From NCBI GenBank assembly GCA_000004985.1, contig GG738859.1: DNA of 64,000 nucleotides; one strand, given 5' to 3'. Below the pieces are notes generated by a model. That model was given only the letters and a program-made list of their open reading frames with translations. It did not search any database and was not told where the DNA came from. A program made the translations under genes and the position numbers. This document shows, piece by piece, positions 13,658-64,000 of the stretch (positions within the stretch are counted from its first letter, which is position 1; every line of letters starts with the position of its first letter). This stretch comes from Naegleria gruberi (taxonomy: Eukaryota).

Positions 13658-16600
13658 ATGAAAAAAGGCTTCCATAACAACTTTTGGACTGGCTCAAACA
13701 ATGATGAAGGCAATGCCTCAAACAGCCAGAACAGAAGAAAACCGGAAGAGTTATCCGCAAAAGCAGAACAATCCAAGTTTTCTAAAACACTCAAAACAAG
13801 ATTGTATTCAAATAGGGATGAAAAACTAAGTCAAGGATCTGATAACATTTCCTTCGCCAAAACAACAAACATTCAAAAACCAAAGGAAATTAAATCAGAA
13901 CAATTTTCATCGACTCAGAAGAGAATGAAACCAAATGACTTGGACTTCTTCAACAAACCAACAGATGAAACAATGCAACTTGTAAATATTAGGAGTCCAA
14001 CACCACAAAATAGGATTGAGGAAGGTGAAATCAAAAGAGAGGCCTTTGACAAATCAACAATAAGATTAAAACCTCTATCATCACAATCACCAAGACTAGA
14101 AATGGATGATTCAAATCCATTGAATCCTCTTAAAAAATCGCCAATGTGGTTCATAGGTTGGTATTTTATTGATTGTTAATATTTTCTTACATTTAAAAGA
14201 ACGACTAAAGAAAAATCCATCCAGTATGGAATATGTCTATCTAGTTCCGTATCAAGATGAAACAAATGAACCTTATAACCCATACAAACTACAAATAGTA
14301 TCACATGCATCAATAGCAGATAAACCAGATTATTATACGCTGAGTGCAACTGGTGTGACACACTTTATTAATGGAGAAGCAGGTTAGTATCAATTTTTTC
14401 GTTCTATTTCATTGAATATTCAATATTTTAGATTTTACTCCATTAACTAGATGGGTTCAAGAACATGATACTTTCCAAAAGATACTCAAAATCAAATTCT
14501 TTGCTAATTTCAGAAAGTGGAAAGCCTTTTATTTCTTTAAAAAGTTGATAACCAGGAAAAAGAGAGCTATTTCTTCTGCTACATTAAACGAAAGACTCTT
14601 TTTCATCAATAATAACAAATCACTAAGAGATATCAGATTAGAATGTATTAAAATAACCGAGTTGGAATTATTTAAAGATAACAAGGGTGAAACCCTAACA
14701 GTTGAAGATTTTACAAAGAGGCAAGAATTACAAAAAGAAGAAGTTAGTCGACAATTGATCGATATTTGTGATGTAATTGCTGATATGATTTACGAAGCTT
14801 GTAGAGATACTATGATTGATGCAGGATTTGGAGACCGATTTGGGGATTTGGATCAAATTCCGGATATTGAACAAAAAAATAAGGATAATGGAAGTACTTT
14901 TGGTTTTGGAAAGAATGAAGAGGAAAATGATGATGAATTCGAAGAAAAGACATCAGTAAATAGATCAATGAGATCTATCTCTGCTAAGAAAGGGAGCAGA
15001 AATAACCTCACAAGTAATTTCCAATCATTCAATATGACATATACAGAAAAATCCTTAAAGAGAAAAGTTTGCAAGAGAATTATTAGTTTTATTAGGTTAT
15101 GCGACTTTTTGGTTTTAGATTCATTGATTGAACTTGTCGAAAAATCTGTTGAAAGAATTTTGCACAAGATTGTTACACTTTCTGAGAATAGTGACAAGAA
15201 CATTGAAGAAGAAATTATGCAGCTAGGTTTAATAGGAACTGAAGATTTAGAAATTGTTCCATTATTTAAAGTAGACATTAGATTCTCTGATCAAAAATTA
15301 CAAATTCTTCCTTCTAAGGAACAATTCGATAAGAGAGTCTCTAAAGTTATTGAGGGATTTTTCGAGGCAATTAGACTTGACAAATTCATTACTAGAAAGA
15401 AATTTGAAGAATACACTGACCCTGTTATTAATGATAAGGGTGCTGATGCTATAGTAAGCGAGGGAATCACAGTTAAAGAAAGAATAACAAGAAGAGAATC
15501 GTATGACAGATTATTGAAGAGTATCAAAGAAACACTTTCTATTGCCTTCAAAGATGTTGAAAAATACGCAAAAGAATACGAACCAATCAAGGTCAAATAT
15601 TTAGAAAACAAGGAAATGTTAGAGACTGAGGTATCTTCTTTAAAGGAAAAAGATTTGCCATTGGAATGGTTCCAAGACGAAATGAACAAGTACAAACATC
15701 AGGATAGAGAGGTTAAACAAATGAGAACATACAAGTATAAGGGAATTTTCTATGTAGATACACAAATGCTAAAAGAAACCTTCTCTCCTTCACCAACAGA
15801 ATGTCTTAAGAAGTTACACATTATTCTTCCAGAATTGTCAAAGGACAAGAATCAAATACTGTACAAAAAATTGGAAAAAGCCATGGAAAGGTTTAAGGCT
15901 TTCCCTGCATCTGTTGAGGACTTTGTAGAATTTTTAAGATTTGTTGAAAAAACAGTCGCTAGTCTGGATGAGTTGGAGACTGAATTCAAGACAGTATCTG
16001 ATTTCTATAAATTAATGGATGATGAGAAAGTTAAGGTTCCAGTGGAAGATAAGAACTTTTTCCAAGATTTTACTGTTTCTACCATATCTACTCTTAGGTC
16101 TTCAATCAGTAGAGCTGAAGACAGCAAAGAAGATCGTATCAATAAGTTCTCTGTCGATCTTAAGAGAAAGATTGATGATCTTAGAGGAGAAATACAAGAT
16201 TTCTTGGAGAAATCAAAAGATCCTATGGTTTCAGATGTAAATTATGCAGATAGTAGGGATAGAATCGAGGACGTAATATCATACCTTATGGATCTTAAGA
16301 ACGGTATGGATAAGGCTCAAAAGAGATCAATAGAGTTGATAGGATATCAAGAACTATTCAAGGTTAAAACTGATAGTATTGATGAAATGCCAATTATTGC
16401 CAAAGAAATTGATCACAAACTCAAACTTTGGACTACCATGAGAAGCTGGAACGATTTTGAATCAGAAAACAAATGTAAAATTTTCAAGGATGTTTCTGCA
16501 GAAGAGGTTAAAAGAAATATTGATAACTTCCAATATACAGCCTCATTCTTGCAAAAGAATTCAGAGGAGGAAAATCCTGTTACAAAGAAACTCTCAGATT

Positions 16601-19600
16601 ATACTGACAACTGGCGATTGGTACTTCCAATCATTGAAGATTTGAAGAATGTCTCTCTTAGAACAAGACATTGGAGAATTTTGGACAATATTGTTGGATC
16701 CACCATATCCGAGAAGAACTTTGAGCTGTCTCTATTGTTCGATTCTGATATTATTGAAAAGAGAAAGAGAATTCAAGAAATTTCTGAACAAGCTTCAAAT
16801 GAAGCTTCACTGGAAGAACAGCTCAAGAAGGTCAAAGAGAACTGGTTCAAATCAGAATTCCCTATCGTTTCACATAAGGATATGACAATTATTGGAAGTG
16901 TTGAAGATATCATGTCATTGTTAGAAGATGACAGAATTGTTCTCTCAACAATTTTAAGTTCAAGATTTGTTACAGCCATCAAGGATCAAGTTGAAGAATT
17001 ATTCAATGATCTCAATTTGATATACTCTACTATTCAAGAAATTATTTATTGTCAAAGAAAGTGGATGTACCTCGAAAATGTTTTTGTATCTGCAGATATT
17101 GCTGCAGAATTGAAGGAAGATCACAAATTATTTGTTTCCATTGACAGATTCTATAAGGAAGCAATGAAGAGGGCAAAAGAAGTTAAGAATGTACACAGAG
17201 TTATTATTGGTGCTGAATCCTCTGTTAAGAGTGGTTTATACGACAAGTTGAGAGTACATAATACTCACCTTGATAGAATTGAAAAGAGTTTGGAAGAATA
17301 TCTTAAGAAGAAGAGAAATCTTTTCCCAAGATTCTACTTCTTGTCCAATGAAGACTTGATCGATATTTTATCGCACACAAGTAACCCACAAGCTGTTCAA
17401 CCATATTTACCACAATGTTTCGAAGGTATGAAAACTCTTGACATTGATTCATCCAAGTACGTAAAGGGTATGATTTCTAAGGAAGGAGAAAGAGTTCAAT
17501 TTGTTTCCACTACAACAAGAGCCGACGATGTAGTTGAAGACTGGTTAAGAGAAGTAGAACAACACATGTTCGACACTCTTCGTCAATTTATGAAAAGAGC
17601 AGTCAGAGATTATCCAAAGAAGGAGAGAACAGTTTGGATGAGAGACCATATTGCTCAAGTTGTATTGACTGTTTCTCAAATTTATTGGAGTTATGATGTT
17701 ACAAATTGTCTTACTTCAGAAAATCCAAGAAAGGAACTAGAAAAGTTTTACGACAAATCTATTGCTTTGCTTAATGATTTAGCTTATTTAACCAGAACAA
17801 AACTTTCATCGAATGAAAGAAAGCTTATTGGTACAATGATTATTTTGGACGTCCACGCCAGAGATGTCATTAAGGCTATGATTGAAGAAGGTGTTAATGA
17901 TGTTAATAACTTTGGTTGGTTGAAACAACTTAGATTCTATTGGGAGTCTGATGTTGATGATTGTATTGTTAGACAATCTAATTCAGTATTCAGATATGGA
18001 TATGAATATGGTGGCATTCAATCTAGACTTGTTATTACACCTCTAACCGATAGAGTTTACATGACTTTAACAGGAGCTCTTCACCTTAACCTTGGTGGCA
18101 GTCCTGAAGGACCTGCTGGTACAGGTAAAACTGAATCTGTAAAGGATTTGTCTAAAGCTTTGGCTAGACCTTGTGTAGTTTATAACTGTTCTGAAGGTGT
18201 TACCTATACAATGATGTACCAATTTTTCAGTGGTATTGTTCAAGTTGGTGCCTGGGCTTGTTTTGACGAATTTAACAGAATTAATGCTGAAGTGTTATCA
18301 GTTATTGCTACTCAATTACTCACTATTCAAGATGCACTAAAGGCTAAAAAGACAAGATTCATGTTGGAAGATGATCAAGAAATTTCTTTGAGACATACTT
18401 GTGGTGTTTTTATTACTATGAATCCTGGTTATGCTGGTCGTACTGAGCTTCCAGATAACTTGAAGGCTCTTTTTAGACCAGTGGCTGTCATGTTACCTGA
18501 CTACAGAATGATTGCCGAAGTTATTTTATTCTCTGAAGGTTATCAAGATGCATTACCTCTCTCTAGAAAGATGACACAATTGTACAAGTTGTCTAACGAA
18601 CAGCTTTCTACACAAGATCACTACGATTTCGGTATGAGAGCTATGAAATCAGTACTTGTTATGGCTGGTGAATTGAAGAGAGCTAATCCTGATTTGAGTG
18701 AAAGCACAACTTTAATGAAGGCCATGATTGACAGTAACCTTCCAAAATTCGTCCAAGAAGATATTTCACTTTTCCAAGGTATTGTTTCAGATTTATTCCC
18801 AGGTATTCAAGCTCCAGAAGAAAAACATGGTGAATTGGAAGTTGGTTTTAGGGATATTATTGCCAGAAAGGGTCTTGAACCTGTGCCGAACTTTATCAAG
18901 AAAGTTGTACAGTTTTATGATACATTAGTGATTCGTCATGGTGTTATGTTAGTTGGACCAACTGGTGGTGGTAAATCTGAAATCAGACATGTTCTCTATG
19001 ATACTATGAACTACCTAAAGGAAGAAAAACGATCAAACTCCTCTAGTGTATACAAAGTTCAACAATACCTTTTGAATCCAAAATCAATTACATATGGAGA
19101 ATTGTATGGTGTTCTTAATATGACTACCCAAGAATGGTTTGATGGTTTAATCCCGTACTTTGCAAGAAAAGCTACCAAGGACACATCTGAAGACAAGAAA
19201 TGGATTATTTTTGATGGCCCTGTTGATACTCTCTGGATTGAAAGTATGAACTCTGTTTTGGATGACAGTAAGCTTCTTTGTTTAGATAATACTGAGCGTA
19301 TCCAATTGAATGATAAGATCAGCTTCATATTTGAGGTTCAGGATTTGGCTGTAGCTTCTCCAGCTACAGTCAGTAGATGTGGTATGGTTTTCGTGGATCC
19401 AGTTGAATTGGGTTGGAAGCCATATGTTTCATCGTGGTTGAGAAATTCTACCGTTTCTGCTTTGAGCTCGGAAAATAAGGATGTATTAGAAAAGCTCTTT
19501 GATGATTATGTTCAAGACGGACTTGATTTTATCAGAAATGAATGTTTTGAAGAAGTGCCAAGTAATAATTTGAACTTGGTTACAAGTTTGTGTGGTCTTA

Positions 19601-22600
19601 TTGATTCATTATTTGTGGATCATAAGGAGAAATTAGATGGAGAGAAGACAAAGCAACTTGTAAACTTTGTATTCCTTTTCTGTTATATTTGGTCTATTGG
19701 TGCCAATATTGTTGATGAATCCATGGAGAAGTTTGATAGATTTGTTAAAGAAAAGTTCAAGAAGGCTAATATTGTACCATCCAATGGATCTGTTTATGAC
19801 TTCTTTGTAGATTTCGAGGCAGTCTCTTTTACTACATGGGAAACCTTGAAACCTACATTCTCCTATTCAGGAAATGTTCCATTTTATGAAATTATTGTCC
19901 CAACAGTTGATACTGTTAGATATTCATATCTCATTAAGACCTTACTTAAAAATGAAAAGCCAGTTTTGTTCAATGGTAAGACTGGTGTTGGTAAGACCTC
20001 TATGATATTCAATGCACTTCAAAACTTTGAATTTAAACATAAGGGTGAATCATTTGCAACTGAACTTGTATCAGTTCAATTTTCAGCAAGAACCGATAGT
20101 GGAAGAACTAGAGAAATGATAGAAAGTAAACTTGTGGAAAAGAAGAAAGCTCTTTATGCGCCACCAGGAAAGAAGGTTGTTATATTTATTGACGACCTCA
20201 ATATGCCTAATCTTGAACAATTTGGTGCTCAACCTCCAATTGAACTTATTAGACAAATGATTGGATGTGGTGGTTTCTTCGATGTTTCTAACAGAGAAGA
20301 ATTCCCTTGGAAGATGGTTCATGATTCTACTGTTGCAGCTGCATGCGGTCCTCCAGGAGGTGGTAGAAATCCAACAACACCAAGATTAATAAGATTATTC
20401 CACCTCTTTAGAGTACCTGAATTGTCAAAGAATAGTATGACTTTAATCTTTGAAAGTATTCTTGATGGATTCTTTACATTCAACTCTTTCAGTGAAGATA
20501 TTAGAAGTTCAACAAAACCAATAGTTAAAACAGCTATTGATTTGTATGGTAGAGTTTGTGATAGATTCAGACCAACTCCAAGTTGTGCTCACTATTCTTT
20601 CAACTTAAGAGATTTATCAAAGATTTTCCAAGGTATTGTTCAAGTTAAACCTTCTATGAAGGATTCAAATCAATTCCTTAGGCTTTTTGCCCACGAATCT
20701 TGTAGATGCATGTTTGATAGATTAATTAACTTTAAGGACAGAACTGACTTCTCCGCTATCCTTATTGAACTCTTAAAGAGGTACTTTAAAGGACAGAACT
20801 GGGAAGATTCTGATTTCTTAGGTGATAGAGCTATTGCATTTGGTAATTTCATGGAAAATGGAGATAGTGAGGAAAAGCCATATGTCCAACTCAATTTGGA
20901 TAAAATGCAAACTGAGCTTGATGATTACCAAATGAGATACAATCTCAATAATACAGGACAACTTGATCTTGTTTTCTTCCCTGATGCCGCAAAGAATATT
21001 ATTAGAATTGCCAGAATTTTATCTCAAAAGAGAAGTAACGCGTTATTGATTGGTGTAGGTGGTTCTGGTAAACAAAGTCTCACTCGTCTTTCCTCTTTCA
21101 TTGCAGGATATAAAACATTTGAAATTAACCTCAAGAGAAATTATGATATTGATGACTTTAGAGAAGATCTCAGAAGTTTATTTAGAATGGCAGGAGGTGT
21201 TGAAGGAGGACCAATGGTATTCCTCATTACAGACTCCCAGATTGTTGATGATGCATTCCTTGAGGATGTTAATAATATTTTGAACTCTGGTGAAGTTCCA
21301 AACTTATTCCCTTCTGATGAAAAGGAAAAGCTTATTAATGAACTCAGACCATTAGCTCAAAAAGCAGGTATTACAGAAACTAGAGATGCTATTTATGCCT
21401 ATTTTATCAGAAGAGTCAGAGATAACCTTCACATTGTTATTTGCATGAGTCCTGTTGGTGATGATTTCAGAAGAAGAATCAGAATGTTCCCATCCCTTGT
21501 TAACTGTACCACTATTAATTGGTTTGATGAGTGGCCAGCTGTTGCGTTAAGAGGTGTTGCTCAAAGAAAGTTTGAGAAGATCAATGTTGGTAATGAGCAT
21601 ATTAAGCAAAAGCTTGTAGACACCTGTGTATTAGTACATAGTGATATTACAGAAATAACAAAGAGGTTTGAGGATGAAACAAGAAGAAAATTCTATATTA
21701 CTCCTTCTCATTATTTGGAATTTATTAATTTCTATGGTGAATTATTGGAAGAGCAACGTCTTGAATTAAAGGAAGCAAAAGACAAATTGCAAAAAGGTCT
21801 TTTCACTCTCCAAGAAGCCAATAACAAAGTAGCCTCTTGTGAAAAAGAAATTGAAGAACTTCAACCAATATTAGAACAAAAGACAATCGAAAATGCAGTT
21901 ATCACCAAAGAGGTTATGGAAAAGAAAACACAAGCAGACAAAGACAATGAAATTATCTCTGCAGAAAAGAAGGAAATTGACGAAAAGGCTAAAGTTGCTG
22001 AAGCAATGAAAAGAGATGCTGATGATAAGTTGAAGGATGTTTTACCAGCTCTGGAAGAAGCTGAAAAGGCTGTCAGTGAAGTTGGTGGACCTGAATTGAA
22101 CTTGATTAGATCATATCAAAATCCTGTACAACCAATTAAGGTCACTTTAGAAGGTGTATTGATTTTGTTAGGCGAAAAGAAAACTGATTGGGAAGCTGCC
22201 CAAAAGGCTATGAGCTCTATGGACTTTAAGAAGAGAATTCTTTCCTTCAAGGAAACTATGAAGGAAAAGATGACTCCTCAAATTATAGCTAAAATCAAGA
22301 AATTGATGAAGGATGAAAACTTTACAGAAGCAGTTGTTTATAAGGCCTCTGGACCTGCTGGTTCTTTGTGTAAATGGGTTAGAAAGATGATTGAATACTA
22401 TGAAGTTGAAAAAATCGTACAACCATTGATGGACAGTGCTGCTGCTGCTCAAGAAGAATTAGAAAAGCTCTTGTCTACATTAAGAATCAAGGAATCAGAA
22501 TTGCAAAAGAAGACAGAATATCTTTATCAACTTCAACACCAACTTGAAGAAAATAGTAAGGAAAAGATTAGATTACAAGATCAAAAAGAAATTTCTGAAA

Positions 22601-25600
22601 GAAGACTTGTTGCTGCCAAGAAGCTTACAGTTTCATTGAAAGAAGAATATGAAAGATGGACCCTCTCTGTTGGAGAATTCGATGAAAGGATCAAGAATAT
22701 TGCTGGTGACATCTTTTTAGCCAGTGCTTTCATTATTTATTGTGGTCCATTAACTGCTCCTTACAGAAAAGAGTTACTCGATAAATGGTGTGGATATTGC
22801 AAGGATCAAGGTATTCCATTTAGTGACAACTACTCAATTGATAAGGTAATTGCTGACCCTATTGGTATCAGAGATTGGGGCATGCAGGGCTTGCCGATGG
22901 ATAATTATTCCATCCAAAACGCTTTAATAGTTACCAAGACAAAGAGATGGCCGCTTCTCATTGATCCTCAAGAACAAGCAAACAACTGGATTAAGAATAT
23001 GGAAAAGGGTAACACACTCAAGACATTGAAACAATCTGAAGATAACTATATCAAAACTCTGGAAAGTTATATCACAACCGGTAAACCTGTAATGGTCGAA
23101 GGACTTTCAGAAAAAATTGATCCAACACTCCAACCAATTTTGAGTAAGGAAGTTTTCAAGAGTAAGGGTAAATTAGTATTGAAGATGGGTAATTCTGAAA
23201 TTGACTTTAACCCATCCTTCAAGTTGTACTTGACAACCAAATTAGCAAACCCTCATTACTTACCAGAAATTTGTAACAAGGTAACTCTGGTTAACTTTAC
23301 AGTTACTTCAAAGGGTTTGGAAGACCAATTACTTGCAGATGTAGTCAGAATTTTGGAATCAAGTCTTGAAGAAGAAAGAGACAGGCTTATTGTTAGTGTC
23401 GCCGACGACAAGAAAACTTTGAAGAAGATTGAAAAGAAGATTTTGGATAGCTTGTCATCGGTCAAAGAGGACGAAAATATTCTTGACAAGACTCAAATTA
23501 TCAAATCTCTAGATGACTCTAAGAACACCTCTAATGTCATTAAAGACAGAGTTAAGATTGCTGCCGAGACAGAAATCAAGATTGAACTTGCCAGAGAAAA
23601 ATATAGAAGCATCGCCTCTCGTGGTTCCATCCTTTACTTTGTTCTTGCAGATTTGGCAAAGATCGATCCTATGTACCAATATTCTCTTGAATATTTTAAG
23701 GATATTTTCAATAAGTGTATTAGAATTACCAAAGATCAACATCCTTCATTAACCACAGACCAATTGCTTCCTATTTTAATAACCAACGTTACCGAATTTA
23801 TCTTTACAAACGTTTGCAGAGGTCTATTTGAGAAGGACAAGATTATTTTCTCCTTCTTGATTTGTGCAAGGATTTTAATGTTTGGCCAAGTAATTGATGA
23901 AAATGAATGGTTATTATTCCTTAGAGGTGCTCCTTTAACATATGATAGTAAGAATGAACTATCTGAATGGATTTCTGATATATCTTGGAATTTACTTACA
24001 GCTTTAGATGCCGAAATTCCTCAATTAAAGGGAATAACTGCCTCAGTAACAGGCCATGTCTTCACATGGAAAAAGTTCTTTGAAGATAATGAATCTTTCA
24101 AAAAGGTTCTTCCTCTTAATTGGGAAGGAAAAATCAAACCTTTCCACAAGCTTCTATTAGTTAAATGTTTTGCAGAAGAGCAAGTTTTGTTGGCAAGCAA
24201 GGAGTTTGTCAAAAACAATTTGGGTGAATCGTTCATTAGACCACCAGGTTTAGATTTGGAAAAAGCTCTTAATGACTCAACCCCTAGTACTCCAATTACA
24301 TTCATCCTTTCCCAAGGTGCTGATCCTACAAGTATGTTAAAGAGATTCGCAATTGAAAAGAACCATGAGTTGCATATTAAATCACTTGGACAAGGCCAAG
24401 AAACATCAGCCAAGAAGCTTATTGAAAGAGGAAGAAAGAATGGTGAATGGGTTTTATTACAAAATTGTCACTTGTTTGTTTCATTTATGCCTACTTTGGA
24501 AAATATTATTGCTGAATTCTCATCACCAATGGCTGTTGTACATAAGGACTTTAGATTGTGGTTGACATCTATGCCTTCAAAAGATTTCCCTATCCCAATC
24601 CTTCAAAACAGTGTCAAGGTAACTAATGAACCACCAAAGGGATTGAGATCAAATCTCAGTAGAACTTATAATGAAATTACCGATGAATACTTTTATTCAT
24701 TCGAAGATGGAGAAGAATTCCCTGATTGCAGTAAGAAATTGGCATTCAGAAAACTGCTCTTTGGATTGTGTTTATTCCACGGTGTAATTCAAGAGAGAAA
24801 GAAGTTCGGTCCTTTGGGTTGGAATATTAAGTATGAATTCAACGATTCTGATTTGAGTGTTGCCCAACTTTGGTTGAAGATGTTCTTGAAAGAAAGGGAA
24901 ATTATTCCATGGGATTCATTGAACTATGTTATTGGTGAAATTGTTTACGGAGGAAGAGTAACAGATCCAAATGATAGAAGAGCCCTACTAACTATTCTGT
25001 CTCAATATTTTGAAAAGAAAATTTTATCAAATGACTTTAGGTTCGCTCCTAACGATATTTATAAGGTACCATCTAGTGATCCAATTGAAGATTACAGAAA
25101 TTTCATCCTAGCACTTCCAGATAATGACGAACCAGCCATCTTTAACATGCATCAAAACTCGAACATGGTATTCCAAATGCAAGAAACACAGTACCTTATT
25201 AGTACATCTATGGGTACCCAAGCATTAAGCTCTGGTGGTTCAAAGCAACATCAAATGGATTCTATTGTTCAAGAAATTGCAAACAGTAAGTATTATTATA
25301 CCATATTAATTCTAATTTTTCTTTTAGAAATTATTTCCAAACTTCCTGAAAATCTTAGTAAAGCAGAGGCAGGTAAGAACACATTTATCAGAACAGAAAA
25401 AGGTGCTCTTCACTCTCTTTCCACTGTTCTTAGCCATGAAATGATGAAGTTTAACAAGTTACTTGATACAATTAGAAGCACTCTTGTTGAGCTCCAAAAG
25501 GCCATGGCAGGTTTGGTATTGATGTCTGGAGAATTAGAAAAGACATTCAAGAGCTTATTGAACAATGAGGTTCCAGAGTTATGGGCCGCATATCCTTCAA

Positions 25601-26151
25601 GAAAACCTCTTGGTTCTTGGATAGAAGATCTTGTTGAAAGAGTAGCATTCATGAGAGGTTGGTTGAGAAATGGATTACCAAAAGCATTCTGGCTGTCTGG
25701 ATTCTTCTTCCCTCAAGGCTTTTTCACTGGTGTTCTTCAAACTTACGCTAGAAAGTACAATGTAGAAATTGATTCCTTGTCATTCTCGTTCAGAGTTCTC
25801 TTCGAAATGACTCCTGAAGAAATCCATGAAGGCCCTGAGGACGGTGTTTATGTTTATGGTTTATACTTGAATGGTGCCAAGTGGAATAAGGAAAGAGACA
25901 CCCTAGAGGAATCAGAACCTGGAGAAATGAATGTGAAAATGCCAATTATTCACTTCCTTCCAGAGAAGAATCACAAAACATCACCAAAATGTTATGAGGC
26001 TCCACTTTACAAGACCAGTGAAAGAAAAGGAAAACTATCCTCTCTTGGTCAATCAACAAACTTTGTTATTTCAGTAGAGTTACCAACAGAAAAACCACCA
26101 GCCCACTGGATATCTGAAGGTGTTGCTCTGCTTTGCCAACTAGATATTTAA
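13658..26151 (+). CDS. Axonemal dynein heavy chain, single-headed inner-arm type (~4,090 aa); 4 exons
   Basis: Exons are ~13658..14156, 14200..14382, 14432..25285 and 25328..26151. Introns are GTTGGT...AAAAG, GTTAGT...TTTTAG and GTAAGT...TTTTAG. The N-terminal region motif is YYTLSATGVTHFINGEADFTPLTRWVQEHDTFQKILKIKFFANFRKWKAF. The AAA1 P-loop is GPAGTGKTE, AAA2 is GPTGGGKSE, AAA3 is GKTGVGKTS and AAA4 is GVGGSGKQS. Coiled-coil stalk, AAA5/6 and the conserved C-terminal domain (FWLSGFFFPQGFFTGVLQTYARKYNVEIDSL) are all present. The start codon is uncertain. Confidence 0.85.
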
Positions 26152-55596: not shown

Positions 55597-57267
55597 ATGA
55601 AAAGAAGTGCTTCTGCATCTTGTGAAGGAGAAGAGCCTTCCAAGAAAACAAAACAATCTATGGAGCAAAACTTTATTTCGGAATTGGAAGAGATTGTAGA
55701 ATATTGTCGTGAACAATTCGAAAAAGAATCGGAAGACCCAGATTTCATTGCTGCAGAAATTGGAAATATTCAGAGGAAATTTTACGATTTGCAGAACAAG
55801 TATGAAAAATTCAAGACAATAATTTTAAAAGAGACTTTTACTGACTTGGAAGACTTGGAAACTATGTACAATGAAGCTGATGCAATGCTCAATGAGGCTA
55901 AAGAAGCATTGGCTTCATTTATTGCTTCTGAGGAAAAAACAGAAGGTGAAATCGAAACAGACGAAAATATTGAAAATTTCATTCCACTACCTGAGCTAAA
56001 TGAAGAAACAGAAGTAATACCATTTGAAAGAAGTGAATTAAGAGTAGAAAATATAGAACCCATCCCACTCTTAACATCAAGAAGTTGTTACATTTGTCAG
56101 AGACCCATTGAGAACTCCCCTGTAGTCTGTAAATATTGCTCTAACGCTTGCCATGGCCAATGCTGTGATAAACCAACAATACTGAGAGGAGAAGATACTA
56201 TGATTTGTGAAGTGTGCAGTTCAATCGAGACTGAAGGAGAACCTAATTTTTATTCACTGATAATTAAATCAAAGAATGGAAATGTTACACATGTTAATGA
56301 TATTGGTAATCAACTGAAAGGATTAAGCATTGATAAGTACAAAATCAAATGCCCAAAGTGTCAAGAATTAGTTGCACTAAAAGATTTAAATAGTCACACT
56401 GGAAGAAAATTTGAGTTTGATAAGTTTAGTGACTACCCTTTTGTTCCTTTTTCAGACGAGAAGAATAGAGCCGAAATATCTAGAGTTTTGATTGTTTTCA
56501 ATATCAGCAAAAAGACATTAACCAATATTTGTGAAAGGTACGAAAAAAGGATTGGTCCAGTGGAAATCAATGACATGTATTTAAATGATTCATATGGTAA
56601 TTTTTCAATGCACAAAGCTGTATTCATAACCTTAGAATCTGAAAAGCAAAGTTTTACACTTGCATTGTTTCTGAGCTCGTATTTAATAAGGAAGAATGGG
56701 TAAGTTTTTTTCACGTTTTAGCTTGCAATTTCAATGCAATTTAGTACTGATATCAATGTTCATCCTGTTGTATATTTTTGGAAGTCAAAAGCATTTCAGA
56801 TAGTTATTCCAAGCAAACACGAAATGGAGCTTGTCATACCACCAAAATTGGATGATTTTATTGAAAGAAAGTGGCAGGTAGCTTCAGACACTTCCAATAC
56901 CTTTTATGTAGTATTGAAGGATGTGGCTTATTGTTTTGCTCTTTTGAATACTGTACACGGATTAGTATTGGATAATAAGCAAATTGCAAAAGTTAAAGCA
57001 ATTCAAAATCCTGACACAGACAAGAGGACTGTATTAATTCTAAATATTTATTACGCCTCTATAGAACAATTCAAATATTTCATACTTGATTGTAATACTA
57101 GCTTTGATTTTGATTGGGACGTAATGGTTGAGGAGGATGGATGCCAAATGTTGGAGGACGAAAATTCAATTTCTATCAAGTTTCAATCTGAAGAAATTGC
57201 AAAAGCATTTGTAAATGATTTTAATGATTCCTTATTTAACGAACATCATTTACAAATGTTTAATTGA
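55597..57267 (+). CDS. Hypothetical protein with PHD/treble-clef-like Cys/His zinc fingers and a conserved-looking C-terminal domain; 2 exons
   Basis: Exon 1 (55597..56699) has an acidic coiled N-terminus and CYICQRPIENSPVVCKYCSNACHGQCCDKPTILRGEDTMICEVCS...KIKCPKCQELVALKDLNSHTGRKFEF. A 45-nt GTAAGT...AATTTAG intron follows. Exon 2 (56745..57267) is TDINVHPVVYFWKSKAFQIVIPSKHEMELVIPPKLDDFIERKWQV...FNEHHLQMFN*. Confidence 0.5.
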
Positions 57268-57312: not shown

Positions 57313-58623
57313 ATGTCAACACCAAAATTGTACAAATACAGAAATCACAAAAAAGCTTCAAACAACAAAAAAATGTCCACAACAGAATCCAAGTCAATTT
57401 TCTCCAGAATTATTTCATACATTACCTCATGGTTTATGTATATTGTTCAAGCAATTTATTCTCTCTACAAGGATGAATTAGAAAGACAGTCACGAGACGA
57501 AACTGACTATAAAAAGTGGAAACTCTACGAAGAAATACAAAGAAACCAAGAACAACCTCAACAATATGATGAAGAAAGTGTTCTCGGAGGAACTTGTCCT
57601 TCTACAAGCACAGTTTCCATACAAGAACTAAAATCATCTTCGGAGAAGGAAGACGAAACTACAAAGATAGCAATTGAAGAAGATAAGAAGACTACCACTT
57701 CTCCTATTAAACAAGAAATTCCTGTCACTTCCTCTGTTACAGAAAAGGTTGTAGAGAAGGAAGAATCTCCAATGGTTGTCATCATCAAACCTAAAGTTGT
57801 CATCAGTGAGCCAACACCAATTGTTGAAAAGAAACCAGTAGAACAAGATAACAAACCTGTCATCACCAAACCAATCAATCCAATTATTGAAGAAACAAAG
57901 AAGATTCCAAATGAAACTGTCATCCAATCATCACCTCCTAAACCTGTCAAAGAGCCAGTTGCTGCCACAACTAAAATTACTCCAAAATCGACAAGTAATA
58001 GTACTAACAATGTTGCCACTCAACCAACAACTACTGCAACACCAGAAAAGCAATCAAAACCTGCTGAAATTTCAGGACTCATTGGAGAACGTTTAAAGAT
58101 GAAGAAGTTTAGAAACTTTTCTGGAAATGCATACAATTCCTTAATCAAACCAAGTAGTAAGGAAGATGCAAACAATAAGAAGGAAGTTACATCTAGTACT
58201 ATCACTACTCCAGTCGCTTCAACTCAAGAGGTAATTCAACAATCTAATAACCAACTCATTCAAAGAAAGTTGAGTTCCAAACCAAAGAAGGTTTCAAGAC
58301 GTCCTTCTCAACAAACCATCAAGCATTCAGATATTTTGGCAAAATTAGAAGAAGAAGCAACTATTGACTTGCCAGATGTTGAAAAATTCAAAGAATTGGA
58401 AGAATTTTCTCAATTGGAAAAGAAGGTTGGTCTCGAAAATGCAATCAAACAAACGAAGGAAAAGAAGAGTACAACTGCTCCACCACCTCCACCTCTTTCT
58501 CAAGTTGTAAATGTAAATACTAATGATGCCTCTCCATCCAAAACAAAGAGTGCTAAGGTCACACTTGATGCCATCTTGAATGCCAAGGGTTCACTCAGAA
58601 AAACCACTGAAGAATGGAAGTGA
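57313..58623 (+). CDS. Hypothetical disordered protein with N-terminal hydrophobic anchor, poly-Pro and a C-terminal WH2-like actin-monomer-binding motif
   Basis: The 436-aa ORF has a hydrophobic N-terminal segment SIFSRIISYITSWFMYIVQAIYSLY. It is P/T/K/E-rich in the middle. Near the end it reads TAPPPPPLSQ... followed by SAKVTLDAILNAKGSLRKTTEEWK*, which fits the WH2 pattern LLxxIxxGxxLKKT. Confidence 0.4.
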   Translation: MSTPKLYKYRNHKKASNNKKMSTTESKSIFSRIISYITSWFMYIVQAIYSLYKDELERQSRDETDYKKWKLYEEIQRNQEQPQQYDEESVLGGTCPSTSTVSIQELKSSSEKEDETTKIAIEEDKKTTTSPIKQEIPVTSSVTEKVVEKEESPMVVIIKPKVVISEPTPIVEKKPVEQDNKPVITKPINPIIEETKKIPNETVIQSSPPKPVKEPVAATTKITPKSTSNSTNNVATQPTTTATPEKQSKPAEISGLIGERLKMKKFRNFSGNAYNSLIKPSSKEDANNKKEVTSSTITTPVASTQEVIQQSNNQLIQRKLSSKPKKVSRRPSQQTIKHSDILAKLEEEATIDLPDVEKFKELEEFSQLEKKVGLENAIKQTKEKKSTTAPPPPPLSQVVNVNTNDASPSKTKSAKVTLDAILNAKGSLRKTTEEWK

Positions 58624-58897
58624 AATTGTGATTATGCATTAGCTGTTGTAACTGCACAATCTTTTTATTGGGGTGGTGATGGTTATATTGACTACTCTCG
58701 CAAATAGTGAATGTTAATGAATATCTACAAATAATCGTTAAATTATATTAATAATAATATAATACTATTATATTATTTAAATATTGGAGTAAAGTAACAC
58801 GGAGCAAATTCAACACAATGTTAAATAATAAATTAAAATGTTGTTACAAATAGGTGCTACACAATAATTGTGAGTGATGAGAAGGTGTAAAAGATTT

Positions 58898-59155
58898 TTA
58901 CATTATTGTACAAAACCAACAACATCCTTCACTCTTTCCTTGATATTCCACAGCATCACGATGATGATCCTCTAAATTTACTTTCCGATAATTATCATTT
59001 TGATCCGATGATGTATTTTCATAGCGTGAGAATGTTGGACGTTCTCCACGTGGAGTCTGAGCAACTTCATCGCCAAGGTCAAAAGGTGTTGAAATGTTGT
59101 GCTTTCTTGTCATGTTTGTGTGGCAATTAATTATTGGCGAGTGTTGGCTGTTCAA
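58898..59155 (-). CDS. Small ORF (85 aa) ending in a CaaX-like prenylation box (…GCCWFCTIM*)
   Basis: The C-terminus is ...YQGKSEGCCWFCTIM, then stop (a Cys cluster plus CTIM). It lies in AT-rich DNA downstream of the minus-strand PEVK-like gene's stop. It may be independent or non-coding. Confidence 0.2.
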   Translation of the reverse strand: MNSQHSPIINCHTNMTRKHNISTPFDLGDEVAQTPRGERPTFSRYENTSSDQNDNYRKVNLEDHHRDAVEYQGKSEGCCWFCTIM

Positions 59156-59317
59156 AGTTGTGTGGATTTTTTAAGCTGTGTTTGAATTGACATGCTCCAA
59201 TTATCTTCAAATTAGTTTTGCTTTTAGTGTGTTAAAATGTTTGAACGGAAAATCATTCATTAACATGCAGCCATTTTGGACTGGATTCACTGAGATTCAC
59301 TTTGAAAATCTGTGTGT

Positions 59318-62300
59318 TTATTCATCATCAGAATCGTCTAGCAATAAATCATCAACAGTTTTAACCACTCGTGTTGGTTTCTTCTGGGTTGGAATGACGA
59401 CTGCAGTTGATCTTTTACGAGATGAGGTTGGGATGGCAGTTCCTGTAAAGCTACCAATTGCGTTTCTTCTCGTTTTAATAACCTTTTGTGTACTTGTTGC
59501 CGAGGAGACTGATACAGTTGAGGGTGGCTCAGAAATTGGAGAAACAGTTTCAACAGCTGGAGCACTTGTTGGCTTTTCCTCTTGTCTTTTCTTAGCATAT
59601 GAAGTGAGTAAAGAACCCAAATCATCGTCATCATCATACTCAACTTGATCGATTTTTGACTTTTCTTCTTTAAGAATTGATTTTACCATGTCATCATCTT
59701 CATCTTCAGAGCTTGAATCATCAGTTTTGGATTTCACATTTCCATTGGTTGCTGTTGGTGGCTTCACTTGGGCTGATGTGATTGGTTGTTGAGGTAGAAT
59801 AGTTTCTTCATCATCATATTCAGTATCTTCATTCATTTCCTGTTGTTGCTGAAGGGCTAAGAGTTCTTTAAGCACTCGCTCAGTATCATCTTCATCATCT
59901 TGTTCAATTGCTGGACTTGGAGTTAAAGCAGGTGACATGACTGCAATGTCCTTATTTGGTGATGAAAAATTAACTGTTGAGCTAGGAAGAGCTGGCTTTG
60001 GCTGTTCTTGTTGTACTTCTGGAACCACTTGTTTTGGTACAGGTTCTGGTTCAGGTACTGTGGATTGGTTGTGGAGTAGTATTGATTATTGGCTCAACAA
60101 TTTCTTTTGTTTCAGGAATAAATATTTCTGGTTCCTCCTTGGTGGCTGTAACCTCCACTACTGGAATTACAGGAATAAAGACTTGTTTTTCTGCTTCTTT
60201 TGGTTGTGGAACAATTACTGGCTCGGCATCTTGTGTATCCTTAAGAGTTTCAGGAATTAATTCTGGTGTGGTTACAACTTCAATTGATGGCAATTCTGTA
60301 GTAATTAATTTTTCAATAACTTGTTCTGGAATAATTGGTTCCTCTTGTTTTGGTTCTTCCTGAGGCATAGTAGAAATAGACACAATTGGAATTTCAACAA
60401 TCACTTCCTCAGGTATTGTTGGAGCTGTTACAATTTCTGGCTCACTAACAATTTCACTTTTAACTGGTTCATCCACAACAGAAATAACAGGAGTGCTTTC
60501 CACTACTACAGGTTCAGGAATAGTCGACTCAGTTGGTGTATTCTCTGTTTCGGCGACAATTTCACTTTCAGGAGGCACAATAACCTCTGGCTCTTTAACT
60601 TCTTGTTCAATGATTTTGTCTTCTTCTGTTGGTATTATTGGCTCTTCAATATAAACTGGAGTGTGAGCTGCTACTGGAGGTAAACTTTCTACAATTGGTG
60701 TTTCTGTAATTATTGGAGTTTCATCTTGTACTTTAGGCTCCTCAATAATTACTGGAACAATCAACCCAGGAATTAATGATTCAACAGATGCAATAGGAGT
60801 AGAGATTACAGTTTCAGAAGGTTTCTCCTCAGTTGTGGTAACTGAAGGCTCTTGAACAATTACCTCTTCTTTGACAGCCATTGGTGAAGTGTTTTGCTCT
60901 GGTAGTGGGCTTATTGGTGGAGTAGATACATTTGGTGATTCAGTTTTAACAGAAATATCTTGAGTTGGTGTTGCAGTAATAACAGGAGTGACAGTCAACT
61001 CATCGCCATAACCCTCATCGTCATAGGATTCGACTTTTGATGGCTCAACCGGTGTAGAAACCACAGACTTTGGCTCAATTACAAATTCCTCTTTGTGATC
61101 ACTGAAAGCAACTGCCTTCTTTTTCTTTGATGAGATTACGAATGATTTTCTTGTAGTTGGTACTGTAGTGGTTGGTGAGCTAGCGACTGGTGTGGTTGGT
61201 GTTTCCTTATTGTTTGGAACTTTCTTGATATTGGAAATTACCTTCTTTGATCCTACAGTAATTGGTTCAATGCTTGGAGTAACAGCATCCTCAACGATTG
61301 GGGATGAAACTGTTGTTTCTTCTTGAAGTGGAATTTGAGGAGTTGGCGTCTCTTCCTTTGTTGGAGTGTTGGTTTCGAATGAGCTTTCGTCTAAATGTTT
61401 TGCTGGTACATTTTGAGTATTTGATTCCTCCTCTTCGTCAGTAAGATCAAAATCAGAATCCTCATCTTTCTTTGGTTGAGTTTGTGGTTCTTCAACTTTC
61501 TTCAATGAGGCAAATGTTGTAGAGCTAGTAATTGGTCCAAATTCAATTACATCAGAAAGTGTAGAAGCAAGAAAATCTCTTTCCTCTTGTGGAATTCTCA
61601 TAGAACTTCTATTCTTAATTTGAGCAACATCTTGATCCTTCTTTTTGAACATTTTGAAAACTGACTTGGCTTTTGATCTTCCTTTTGGTTCATCAGTTGC
61701 CAAATTAATAATTGGCATTGAATTGACTTTTTCATGATGTTTAGGTGTTGAAGCTGGCTTGCTAGATTTCTTACTTCTTGGTGTCTCCTCATCTCCACTG
61801 AATGTTCCAAAGTCAGAATCTGAGCTCTGTCCAGGATCATTGAATGGTGCAATGACTTTCAACTTTTCTGGAGTAACTCCTGGTAATAAAGTTTCTTGTT
61901 CATCGAAAGAATCAAAATCAGAGTCAGATCTCGCAGCACTAACAACTGTAACTTGATTTTCAATATTTTCTTCATCAACAATTGATTGTGTTCCAATAAT
62001 AGAGGTTGCCATTGCATTTTGTAATGCAGATGAAACTTCAGGTGTTTCTGTTTCTATTTCAGGTGTTTTAGGTGTTGTTGGTTCAGGTGTCTTTTCTTTA
62101 ACAACGATTGGTGCTGATACGCTTGTTGGTTGTACCACAGGTGGTTTCTCAGGTGTAGCTTTGATTTCTTCATCTACCTCACCACTCTTAGCAAGTAATT
62201 CCTTTAGAATATCATCCTCGTCATCGTCATCTTCAATTGGTTCTGGCTTCTTTGGTTCAACAGGTGGCTTTTCAGGTGTTGCTTCTTTTTTGGTTGCAGC

Positions 62301-63905
62301 AACTACTACTGGAACAAGAATAGGAGTAAGATTGAGTGGATTAGTAGTAGCTGCTTGTTCTGCCTTCTTTGGTTCATTGAATTGAGTTGCTGAACGATCT
62401 CTTTCACCGGTAACATTTGAGGTTGCTAAAACGGTTGTAGTTGGACTAATGAAAGTTCTTCCTCTAGATCTGAGAACACTCTCCTTTCTCTTCTTTGTCT
62501 CTGCATCATCGTTCTTTTCGTTCAGAAGGGATTCCAATAAATCGTCGTCATTGAGATATTTCTGCATGTTGGTTTCTGGAATTGGAACTGAAAATTTCTT
62601 TTCAGGAGGGGTTGAATTTGCTTCTGGTTGTTTAACAGTATCCTTTCTTCTAATTATATTAATGGTAGCTCTCTTATTTATCATGGAGCCGACAGCATCT
62701 CCAGCTGTCTTTTCCAACTCTGATCTCAAAAAGACTCCCTTATTTCTCTTTCTATTACTGTTGATATTTTGAATTTCTTCATCTGAGATTTTGAGTGAGG
62801 TTTCATTCTCTACCTTTTCTAATTCTTTCAATTCGGCAATTTTAGCTGAATAGTGTTGCTTAATATTTCTGTGTCTCTTTTGGATTCTACTTCTCTTGTC
62901 AGAGTCGCTGGCACTATCTGATTTTTCTTGCTCTCCATACTTGAAAATTGATTGATTGACCACCAAGGAAACATTCAAGAAATCACTTCTTGGTTCCAAA
63001 TTCAAAGATTTGGCAATCAGAGCATCGCTTCCATATTTAGTTCCCTTTGCCTTGATAAATGAAAGTCCTCCCACTTCAGTAGCTCCATACTTTTCAAAGT
63101 TTGGAGTGTCTGCAATACCAAACACTGGATGGACTTCAAGAACTGGCATTTGTTTGTTGCCCAATCTTGAAATTCTTTTCAAGTCCATACTTGCGAAAAA
63201 GTCCTGTTGATGATTTTTAGCTCTAGGGGTTGCTGCAACCATGTCTTCACTAGAGGAGGGATCACTCTTCTTCTTTATCTTTCCAAGTAAAAAGTCGCTG
63301 AGACTATTCATGGCCTTGTTTTGTGAAGAATTCTTCTTGAGCTTGTTCATAAAATCTTCCAATTCTTGCTTGTCCTTATTTTGAGTTGTCTTCTTGATTT
63401 GTTCAGTGAGGTTTTGCTTTGGTGTCAGAGTAATTTGTTGGTTCTTTTCATCGAGATAGCCCATTTCATTTAGTAAACTTAACCACTTAGTACCACCATC
63501 ATTTCTCAATTGGCCTAAGAGTTCAATAACCTTTGTTGACCTTTCTTCAAGTTCTGGAAATTCTTCCTTGACTTTCTTTGCATCTTCTTCTGGATTGGAT
63601 TGAACTTTTGACGGAGCATTCTTTGAATATTCAGGAATTTCATTGAAAACTCTTTTCTTTTTCTTTTTAGATTTCTTATTCTTTCCTTCCTTCTTTTTCT
63701 TCTTCTTTTCCTCTTTAACTTGTTTGACTTCTTCTTGGATGAGTGATTTGGAACTGCTACTCTTCTTGATTTGTTTTCTCAAATCCACAAAGTTATCATT
63801 TTCAATATCAGCATCACTACCATCAGTGTCACTCATACTGCCATTTTGCGAACTGGTATCAGTGGCTGTTGAAGAACCTGTTTGTGAGAGATTGAGAATA
63901 TCCAT
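59318..63905 (-). CDS. Giant low-complexity Pro/Glu/Val/Lys/Thr/Ser-rich (PEVK-like) intrinsically disordered protein; two ORF segments separated by a frame break
   Basis: ORF 60051..63905 (1,284 aa) begins MDILNLSQTGSS..., with a basic poly-K block and a globular-looking segment (GLSFIKAKGTKYGSDALIAKSLNLEPRSDF). About 800 aa of degenerate P/E/V/I/T repeats follow (TPEKPPVEPKKPEP, EPVVVESTPVISVVDEPVKSEIVSEPEIV...). ORF 59318..60028 (236 aa; VPEVQQEQPKPALP...DDLLLDDSDDE*) continues the same composition in another frame. The junction (~60028-60051) is a -1/+1 frame change with no obvious GT...AG intron. Confidence 0.6.
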
Positions 63906-64000
63906 GATGTCCTTCTTCAGATATTTGACACCATCTAGAACAAATTCTTCACTAATATTTCTTCTGAAATAGGACAGAATAGTTCTGTGGTAATTTCCAT

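Follow-up and report, generated by a model that had tools for sequence, protein, structure and literature searches.

Comparison with orthologous loci of other Naegleria species showed that two minus-strand open reading frames (ORF A and ORF B), located close to one end of the 64,000-nt stretch of DNA analyzed in this study (the window), are parts of one gene. This gene is already annotated, and the frame break separating the ORFs is an ordinary annotation problem, not new biology. In our view the break reflects a one-base indel in the assembled sequence, most probably generated by a base-calling or assembly error, and we give this account about even chances of being correct. We infer both that an indel is the cause and that it is an error rather than a real lesion. 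Three readings of the break had been offered in a preliminary description of this DNA: the evidence favours the indel over the intron, and argues against two independent proteins.

Identity of the gene and its C-terminal part

ORF A and ORF B constitute the rear two-thirds of the Naegleria gruberi NEG-M gene NAEGRDRAFT_65673, whose product is recorded as a "predicted protein" of 2109 aa (EFC46334.1 / XP_002679078.1 / UniProt D2V9Y6). Three features define this part of the gene:

60051..64000, minus strand: frame-A coding part of NAEGRDRAFT_65673 (codon phase from 63998; TGA at 60053-60051), corresponding to aa 561-1875 of the public model EFC46334.1
59318..60085, minus strand: frame-B open stretch of 255 codons, closed by the TAA at 59320-59318 and forming the C-terminal part of this gene
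59324..59758, minus strand: conserved C-terminal motifs, aligned to the C-termini of the orthologues

When 63998..60059 and 60027..59321 were joined and translated, the product was an exact match of aa 561-2109 of EFC46334.1, and neighbouring ORFs of the window matched the N. gruberi proteins EFC46333 and EFC46327 exactly. A literature search with the locus tags of the gene found nothing.

The 1284-aa minus-strand ORF (63905..60051, ending ...TPQPIHST at the frame-A TGA) and the 236-aa ORF (60028..59318, counted from a GTG) reported previously are both present, as are the +1 frame break between them, the quoted peptides and the poly-Lys block. The segment that had been taken for the N-terminal ~400 aa was misplaced. 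Frame A has no stop up to the right edge of the window at 64000 and the first 560 codons of the gene lie past this edge, so the supposed N-terminal region is located in the middle of the protein; MDILNL is merely the first ATG within the window and not the gene start.

An HMM built from the C-termini of the N. fowleri and N. lovaniensis orthologues matched only one of the 947 six-frame pieces of the window, namely the frame-B piece 60085-59321, with 37.3 bits and E=1.2e-10; the second-ranking piece had E=1.2. Pairwise BLASTP of ORF B against the orthologous C-terminus, taken alone, was not significant (E=0.36). The C-terminal motifs (an acidic run with MVKSILKEE; DDDDDLGSLLTSYAKKR; and RVVKTVDDLL followed by the stop) are kept in three Naegleria species and are identical in an environmental strain, and the same acidic LxxLL-like motif is found on either side of the break. 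In an environmental N. gruberi-like contig (L004) compared with 59692-59318, all six substitutions are synonymous in frame B and both indels (+3 and +18 nt) are in frame, which indicates that the N. gruberi lineage translates frame B; indels in the adjoining intergenic DNA of this contig measure 1, 1, 1, 2, 1 and 3 nt. Judged from these sequence comparisons, purifying selection acts on frame B.

Collinearity of the joined protein with N. fowleri FDP41_011860 (1923 aa) extends from the leucine-rich-repeat (LRR) cap to the C-terminus, and aa 337-1923 of the N. fowleri protein are encoded by a single uninterrupted exon with no frame break. It is extremely improbable that the stop is real and that the ORFs represent two separate proteins or genes. 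A stop does separate them, and the N. lovaniensis orthologue has been annotated as two models (C9374_000912, 1449 aa, and an adjacent 560-aa model). However, what divides the N. lovaniensis orthologue is again a frame break, located at a G4 run within a conserved block, and N. fowleri has both parts in one exon. In N. gruberi the 32-nt overlap of the frames leaves no intergenic spacer or promoter space, and the first ATG of ORF B (59937) is located 30 codons into the listed ORF.

The frame break and the 31-nt segment

The region of the break contains the following features:

60054..60085, minus strand: overlap zone in which both frames are open, holding the +1 switch (from ORF reading and composition likelihood)
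60028..60058, minus strand: 31 nt treated as an "intron" in the public gene model, GTACCTGAACCAGAACCTGTACCAAAACAAG, probably coding (VPEPEPVPKQ in frame B)
60031..60060, minus strand: weak tandem repeat, 12 nt x 2.5 copies, with a four-codon unit (xVPE/PEPV)

Frame B corresponds to frame A shifted by +1 nt. Its open stretch follows a TAA at 60088-60086, which confines the switch to 60085-60054; composition likelihood placed the best switch point at ~60068-60056 (...PQPI / VPEPEP...). A homopolymer had been suggested as the cause, which is unsupported, since no base run in 60088-60051 is longer than 2. The 12-nt repeat, the only DNA tandem array found by TRF, spans both the break and the intron of the public model. 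Repeat slippage was rejected as a cause, since the period of this only local repeat is in frame. An Rfam scan of 58600-60200 yielded only SCARNA7 (22 bits versus a gathering score of 65), which was taken as a chance match.

In the public model the frame is restored by a splice at 60058-60028, which has GT...AG ends. The junction reads ...PQPIH-M-VPEVQQ..., and the expected peptide across it is ...PQPIHMVPEVQQ... The statement that there is no plausible GT...AG intron at the break was therefore half right: a 31-nt candidate exists, restores the frame and is in public use, but it is implausible as an intron. These 31 nt look like coding sequence and are unlike the local introns. Six canonical-looking N. 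gruberi introns from this locus, inferred from ORF bridging and orthologue models and not from cDNA, are 45-123 nt long with a GC content of 0.19-0.29, while the candidate has a GC content of 0.45. Its donor, GTACCT, does not fit the GTA[AGT]GT present in 6/6 of these introns and in four introns of the sister species, and lacks the +5 G common to all reference introns. The peptide encoded by the segment in the downstream frame, VPEPEPVPKQ, is a better fit to the flanking composition than are 77% of the genuine 10-mers in the same zone; none of the 15,756 30-nt windows of non-ORF DNA in the window scored as well (0/15,756), and the segment uses the gene's preferred codons.

We consider it quite unlikely that a true spliceosomal intron, albeit unusually short and non-consensus, occupies 60058-60028, as modelled in EFC46334.1. 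In its favour are the GT-AG ends, the exact restoration of the frame and the 30-bp minimum intron length that was applied when N. fowleri reads were mapped (PMC8296547). The acceptor (AAG) alone is not disqualifying, because ...AACAAG also ends another modelled intron of the same gene (L003 1390-1512). Besides the donor, length, GC content and coding character of the segment, this reading has against it that the N. fowleri orthologue contains no intron in its last 4.8 kb. RNA-seq data for N. gruberi exist (PRJEB23822; PMC6142364).

Longer introns were also considered. There are 616 frame-restoring GT..AG pairs of up to 1 kb; all lack a consensus donor, and splicing at any of them would remove coding-like sequence. 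The hexamer GT[AG][AGT]GT does not occur on the minus strand in 61500-59200.

A second way of bypassing the break, programmed +1 ribosomal frameshifting at ACC-UGA-A (60056-60050), would yield ...PQPIHST-EPEPVPK..., with the peptide over the junction reading ...PIHSTEPEPVPK. We regard this as highly improbable. As in the antizyme +1 sites (UCC-UGA-U), the zero-frame UGA follows NCC, and the +1 frame (GAA CCA GAA...) leads straight into the conserved C-terminal part. However, this resemblance rests on ~4 bases, there is no stable downstream RNA structure that could be stimulatory (z of -0.46 and -1.2 versus shuffles), and the arrangement is not conserved in the orthologues: that of N. fowleri, in which this region is not alignable, needs no shift within its one open exon. 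Moreover, composition likelihood prefers, by ~4 nats, a switch 1-4 codons ahead of the stop, and an indel is the simpler explanation. We know of no such programmed frameshift system in Heterolobosea. Taken together, a biological break that is bypassed, either by removal of a 31-nt intron with a GTACCT donor from coding-like sequence or by a +1 shift at ACC-UGA-A into the C-terminal 245 aa, is unlikely.

Independent sequences covering 60028-60088 were sought by protein-database searches, metagenome pattern scans, and exact look-ups of both ORF B variants and the reference locus entry, none of which covered this interval. Negative results of the representative-only protein search carry little weight, as it also missed known sequences (e.g. 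the L004 fragment). Of two environmental N. gruberi-like contigs from ENA ERZ929261, L004 covers 59692-58771 and stops short of the break, while L003 overlaps the window only at 64000-62994 and is chimeric past its position 3839, where it runs into an Obg GTPase gene. At the site itself, the sequence available does not tell an assembly error from a real mutation or allele of NEG-M or from splicing.

It is possible, though we doubt it, that the extra base is real in NEG-M, as a recent frameshift mutation or as one allele of a heterozygous or polyploid clone. Such a copy would encode a protein cut at ...PQPIHST and devoid of the conserved C-terminal ~245 aa, and frame B would be a very young untranslated remnant. 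The site lacks a homopolymer or other error-prone context, and the reference is a multi-fold Sanger assembly; both points make a consensus indel error less probable a priori. Genes that are long and of low complexity offer a large target for mutation, and a very recent lesion would leave what is seen here, i.e. an intact frame B carrying signatures of purifying selection only. On the other hand, loss of C-terminal motifs that are kept in three Naegleria species and identical in an environmental strain should be selected against, and we estimate (this is not a measurement) that a fixed lesion in this particular gene is a priori less probable than a consensus indel somewhere along a 6.4-kb CDS.

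According to the explanation that we prefer, an indel in the reference, ORF A and ORF B would be consecutive parts of the last exon of NAEGRDRAFT_65673, which encodes a protein of ~2,100 aa. The assembly would contain a one-base surplus (or a two-base deficit) within 60054-60085, most likely at ~60056-60068, with a base-calling or assembly indel as its most probable origin. The true gene would then be one continuous ORF (...TTPQPI-x-VPEPEPVPKQVVPEVQQ...) of ~2,119 aa. EFC46334.1 differs from this reading in that the 31 nt, here considered coding and contributing the extra VPEPEPVPKQ, are removed as an intron; the latter would be a device of the gene predictor, by which the frame was restored at the cost of ten real codons.

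A precedent is found in N. lovaniensis, where a frame break (at the G4 run mentioned above) likewise divides the orthologue between two gene models, at another site than in N. gruberi.

The value of these results lies mainly in curation, and they open no wider question. EFC46334.1 probably lacks ten real codons and contains a spurious 31-nt intron, and the division of the N. lovaniensis orthologue between two models is wrong. Wherever N. gruberi gene models contain tiny non-consensus introns, these should be suspected of being frameshift patches, since they raise the number of introns counted and skew the statistics of splice sites.

Protein layout and the Naegleria family

The predicted protein comprises an N-terminal region and a short putative LRR block plus cap, located mostly outside the window, followed by a Lys-rich block, conserved mid blocks and an acidic low-complexity tail of ~1,000 aa. 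Five acidic LxxLL-like motifs lie in this tail, as does a P/E/V/I/T-rich spacer of ~310 aa that is species-specific. Within the window we distinguished:

63651..63710, minus strand: Lys-rich block, EEKKKKKKEGKNKKSKKKKKR; a K-rich block is also present in the orthologues
62916..63593, minus strand: conserved mid-protein region, 64-65% identical to the N. fowleri and N. lovaniensis orthologues
59980..60908, minus strand: P/E/V/I/T-rich acidic low-complexity zone, ~310 aa (aa 1000-1310 of the joined protein)

The Lys-rich block may act as a nuclear-localisation-like signal. The segment previously described as a partly globular N-terminal domain falls within 62916..63593, a region found only in Naegleria, for which AlphaFold2 gave no confident fold (pLDDT 35.7); for the N-terminal region with the LRR block (642 aa) the prediction was likewise too poor for a fold (pLDDT 33.7). 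A Pfam search found no domains in the window part of the protein. The full protein gave sub-threshold matches only, to LRR_4 (24.2 bits, cut-off 27), LRR_8 (23 bits, cut-off 27) and NXF1-LRR, the first two at aa 464-504, i.e. outside the window. Matches to PDB entries were weak (LRRs of NXF1 and dynein LC1, E 0.06-0.3). A cap-like motif, GN...Y..TIL.YFR.N....F.LDG, is conserved in the orthologues.

A profile search of 1.84 billion proteins matched only Naegleria sequences, and the NAEGRDRAFT_65673 family, as far as sequence similarity reveals, is restricted to this genus. The orthologues of N. lovaniensis (E=5e-114) and N. fowleri (E=6e-109) are collinear with the N. gruberi protein over the conserved blocks, sharing in the same order the LRR cap, the K-rich block, the mid blocks, DSDFD(T/S)F, EFGPITSSTTFASLK and the C-terminal motifs. 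In contrast, the spacer that extends from EFGPIT... to the C-terminal motifs is not alignable; it comprises roughly 600 aa in N. gruberi, 365 aa in N. fowleri and 415 aa in N. lovaniensis, and its P/E/V/I-rich composition is specific to N. gruberi. The gene can be regarded as a lineage-restricted candidate LRR protein gene that encodes a rapidly evolving acidic tail and short conserved motifs, and it holds modest interest for the cell biology of Naegleria. Its product may be a scaffold or adaptor whose disordered tail binds partner proteins.

Composition and comparison with known proteins

The protein had been described as ~1,500 codons dominated by Pro, Glu, Val, Ile, Thr, Lys and Ser. The strong bias is real, but it is confined to about aa 1000-1310 of the joined protein, where the P+E+V+I+T fraction is 0.71-0.78 and the net charge is -14 to -20 per 100 aa; the zone is species-specific in sequence and runs on across the break. 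Low complexity of aa 500-1000 (P/E/T/S/K) is milder, and aa 1-500 contain conserved blocks rich in K/S/N/L. The maximum P+E+V+I+T value (0.81 per 100 aa) makes the protein an outlier in the window, where the next-highest value is 0.67, in a neighbouring gene, and no further ORF of 200 aa or longer exceeds 0.52. The reported degenerate short repeats did not hold up: no period emerged at lags 1-40, 5- and 6-mers recur about as often as in shuffled sequence, and only 3- and 4-mers show a modest excess.

Beyond this amino-acid bias, the proposed likeness to the titin PEVK spring and elastic linkers is unsupported. Like titin PEVK, the zone is Pro/Glu/Val-rich, proline-interrupted and probably non-globular. 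In titin PEVK, P+E+V+K amounts to ~0.7 or more; here it does not exceed 0.61 per 100 aa, with 4-6% K and 12-16% I. The N. gruberi region also differs in being strongly acidic, in lacking tandem 26-28-residue PPAK-type repeats or poly-E motifs and any other period (no autocorrelation peak at lags 1-40), and in lacking flanking Ig/FN3 domains (Pfam: none in the window part, weak LRR matches in the full protein).

By analogy, the putative layout may be compared with that of ANP32-type nuclear proteins, in which a capped LRR block is likewise followed by a basic cluster and an extended acidic tail of low complexity. However, the Naegleria protein is ~8x larger, shows no significant sequence match to the ANP32 family, and carries an extra N-terminal region and mid blocks that are unique to Naegleria.

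Reading frames and the public gene model

The window has a G+C content of 29-38% and its ORFs are long and mostly without interruption; two of them match N. gruberi EFC46333 and EFC46327 exactly, and the largest (14545..26151, + strand) runs uninterrupted over 3868 aa. Both reading frames of the preliminary description are present on the minus strand:

63905..60051, minus strand, ORF A (frame A): 1284 aa ending in TPQPIHST, then TGA (60053-60051)
60028..59318, minus strand, ORF B (frame B, i.e. frame A plus one base): 236 aa, with GTG taken as the start

There are no stop codons in frame A from 63905 to the window end. MDILNL is only the first in-window ATG; frame A continues upstream of it, and in the orthologues the preceding residues, GNYHRTILSYFRRNISEEFVLDGVKYLKKDI, have their counterpart in the LRR-cap region.

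When 1.84 billion representative proteins were searched with a profile, only two matches came up: (i) the cluster to which the N. lovaniensis orthologue belongs, and (ii) P0005, whose cluster includes EFC46334.1 (NAEGRDRAFT_65673), a 2109-aa "predicted protein". When 63998..60059 is joined to 60027..59321, the exact translation is aa 561-2109 of EFC46334.1; the target gene is therefore already annotated, and 560 codons at its 5′ end fall beyond the window. Across the frame break, the public model drops 31 nt (60058-60028) as an intron (...PQPIH joined to MVPEVQQ...).

P0005 itself is a false 597-aa protein derived from a chimeric environmental contig, L003 (ENA ERZ929261 k127_227969), which shows 99.5% identity to window 64000-62994 and then, at junction 3839/3840, changes abruptly to an unrelated Obg-family GTPase gene. 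Since P0005 serves as cluster representative of the real N. gruberi protein, the latter is hidden from representative-only searches.

Composition and motifs of the protein

A strong P/E/V/I/T bias (0.71-0.78) was found over approx. 310 aa (aa 1000-1310 of the protein obtained by joining both frames), with 4-6% K and a net charge of −14 to −20 per 100 aa. This zone extends past the break, and nowhere else in the window does the P+E+V+I+T fraction per 100 aa reach this gene's maximum (0.81). The degenerate short repeats of the preliminary description were not recovered; a repeat search revealed neither periodicity nor a DNA tandem array. The zone is unalignable with the sister species, in which the spacers have other lengths and another composition. 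It is thus a low-complexity spacer that evolves quickly, rather than an array of PEVK repeats, and the proposed analogy to the titin spring is superficial.

The convergent neighbouring gene (57313..58623, + strand, 436 aa) also carries a P/V/K/E/T/I-rich low-complexity stretch; its maxima (PEVIT 0.67, PEVK 0.59) are second to the target gene in the window, and it has no Pfam match.

The mid region of the protein is conserved (64-65% identity). AlphaFold gave no confident model of this region (pLDDT 35.7) or of the N-terminal and LRR part (pLDDT 33.7), and Pfam and PDB searches gave sub-threshold LRR matches only. We infer that the protein combines an LRR head and a basic cluster with a long acidic tail, a possible binding site for other proteins. 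Candidate protein-interaction motifs, in which an acidic run precedes Φ-x-x-Φ-L, occur in five LxxLL-like copies (DDDLLESLL, DDILKELL, RVLKELL, MVKSILKE and DLGSLL), two upstream of the break and three downstream:

window ~62547, minus strand, motif copy at joined aa 453
window ~62226, minus strand, motif copy at joined aa 560
window ~59896, minus strand, motif copy at joined aa 1338
window ~59710, minus strand, motif copy at joined aa 1400
window ~59638, minus strand, motif copy at joined aa 1424

The position is kept in N. fowleri and N. lovaniensis for three of the five. Residue shuffles predict 0.09 occurrences, a statistic that is inflated because the pattern was defined after viewing the data.

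Orthologues and translation of frame B

The joined protein is collinear up to its C-terminus with the N. fowleri orthologue, FDP41_011860 (1923 aa), the gene of which has two introns, both in the N-terminal part, with aa 337-1923 encoded by a single exon. In pairwise BLASTP, ORF B alone was not significant against this protein (E=0.36). An HMM of the C-terminus, built from the two sister-species proteins, matched the frame-B piece alone among the window's 947 six-frame pieces (37.3 bits, E=1.2e-10; runner-up E=1.2), and the alignment extends to its final residue. That the two frames represent separate genes or proteins is very improbable: they overlap by 32 nt, ORF B lacks an early ATG, and the orthologue structure contradicts this.

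The N. lovaniensis orthologue (C9374_000912) also has a frame break, located at a G4 run within a conserved block (L001, PYSW02000011.1, 14560-14610; ...AAGGGGTAG...), which divides it into two models, of 1449 aa and 560 aa. Adding one G gives ...FAKKDKGVDAKLKDRYSL..., in agreement with N. fowleri; the probable cause is a homopolymer indel of the N. lovaniensis assembly. The case shows how easily assemblies can disrupt this long gene.

The metagenome assembly ERZ929261 (run ERR1078381) includes a close relative of N. gruberi. Its contig L004 spans window 59692-58771, short of the break; relative to ORF B it has six substitutions, none of which alters the frame-B protein, and two insertions (3 and 18 nt), apart from which the proteins are identical; indels in the adjoining non-coding DNA are 1, 1, 1, 2, 1 and 3 nt. 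L003, also short of the break, shows four synonymous changes and one non-synonymous change over 64000-62994. This pattern of substitution indicates that the N. gruberi lineage translates frame B. ORF B is therefore not an old dead remnant, and the break is either spurious, very recent or bypassed.

A 71-aa ORF (59113..58898; MTRKHNISTPFDL...GCCWFCTIM), identical in L004, follows the target gene on the minus strand after approximately 200 nt. KHNI.TPFD, QTPR and the terminal CCWFC with a CaaX-like end (CTIM / CSIQ) are kept in N. fowleri (L002, ~16370-16600) and N. lovaniensis. Pfam gave no match, neither sister-species locus has a gene call there, and the ORF appears to encode a small prenylated protein that annotation has missed.

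Cause of the frame break

A TAA at 60088-60086 bounds open frame B, and the switch must lie inside 60085-60054; composition likelihood favours a position 1-4 codons upstream of the frame-A stop, by ~4 nats. The suggestion of a homopolymer error is inapplicable, as this zone contains none. Independent sequence across the break was not found by any route tried.

The intron of the public model was compared with six canonical-looking N. gruberi introns, two in the target gene (in L003, confirmed by the public protein model) and four in the window, taken where removal joins long ORFs:

56700-56744, plus strand, reference intron joining long ORFs
48587-48533, minus strand, reference intron joining long ORFs
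31913-31863, minus strand, reference intron joining long ORFs
9053-9006, minus strand, reference intron joining long ORFs

The latter four (45-55 nt, GTAAGT or GTATGT donors, TAG or CAG acceptors, GC 0.19-0.29) are usable as a local splice-site reference. All six are 45-123 nt long, with GC 0.19-0.29 and a GTA[AGT]GT donor, and sister-species introns in the orthologous gene have GTAGGT or GTAAGT donors. In contrast, 60058-60028 is 31 nt long (GC 0.45), starts with GTACCT and ends with AAG, although ...AACAAG is also the acceptor of another modelled intron of this gene, and thus the acceptor alone is not disqualifying. No GT[AG][AGT]GT hexamer was found on the minus strand between 61500 and 59200. 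Read in frame B, the 31 nt give VPEPEPVPKQ in the gene's preferred codons, which matches the flanking composition more closely than do 77% of the zone's genuine 10-mers and outscores all 15,756 30-nt windows of non-ORF DNA in the window. A weak 12-nt (four-codon) tandem repeat crosses its 5′ boundary and most of its length. A real intron is accordingly improbable; the segment resembles coding sequence, and the predictor seems to have introduced the "intron" as a frame patch.

Most probably, the break reflects an indel of one base near 60056-60068 of the assembled sequence, which the spurious intron of the public model masks; this would make it an ordinary matter. We give an assembly error an even chance of being its cause; a genuine mutation or allele of strain NEG-M is rather unlikely.

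Bypass of the stop by +1 ribosomal frameshifting is scarcely credible: no RNA fold was detected downstream of the stop (z −0.46 and −1.2), composition likelihood favours a switch before it, and the N. fowleri orthologue has no need of any shift. The stop context, ACC-UGA-A, bears a faint likeness to antizyme +1 sites.
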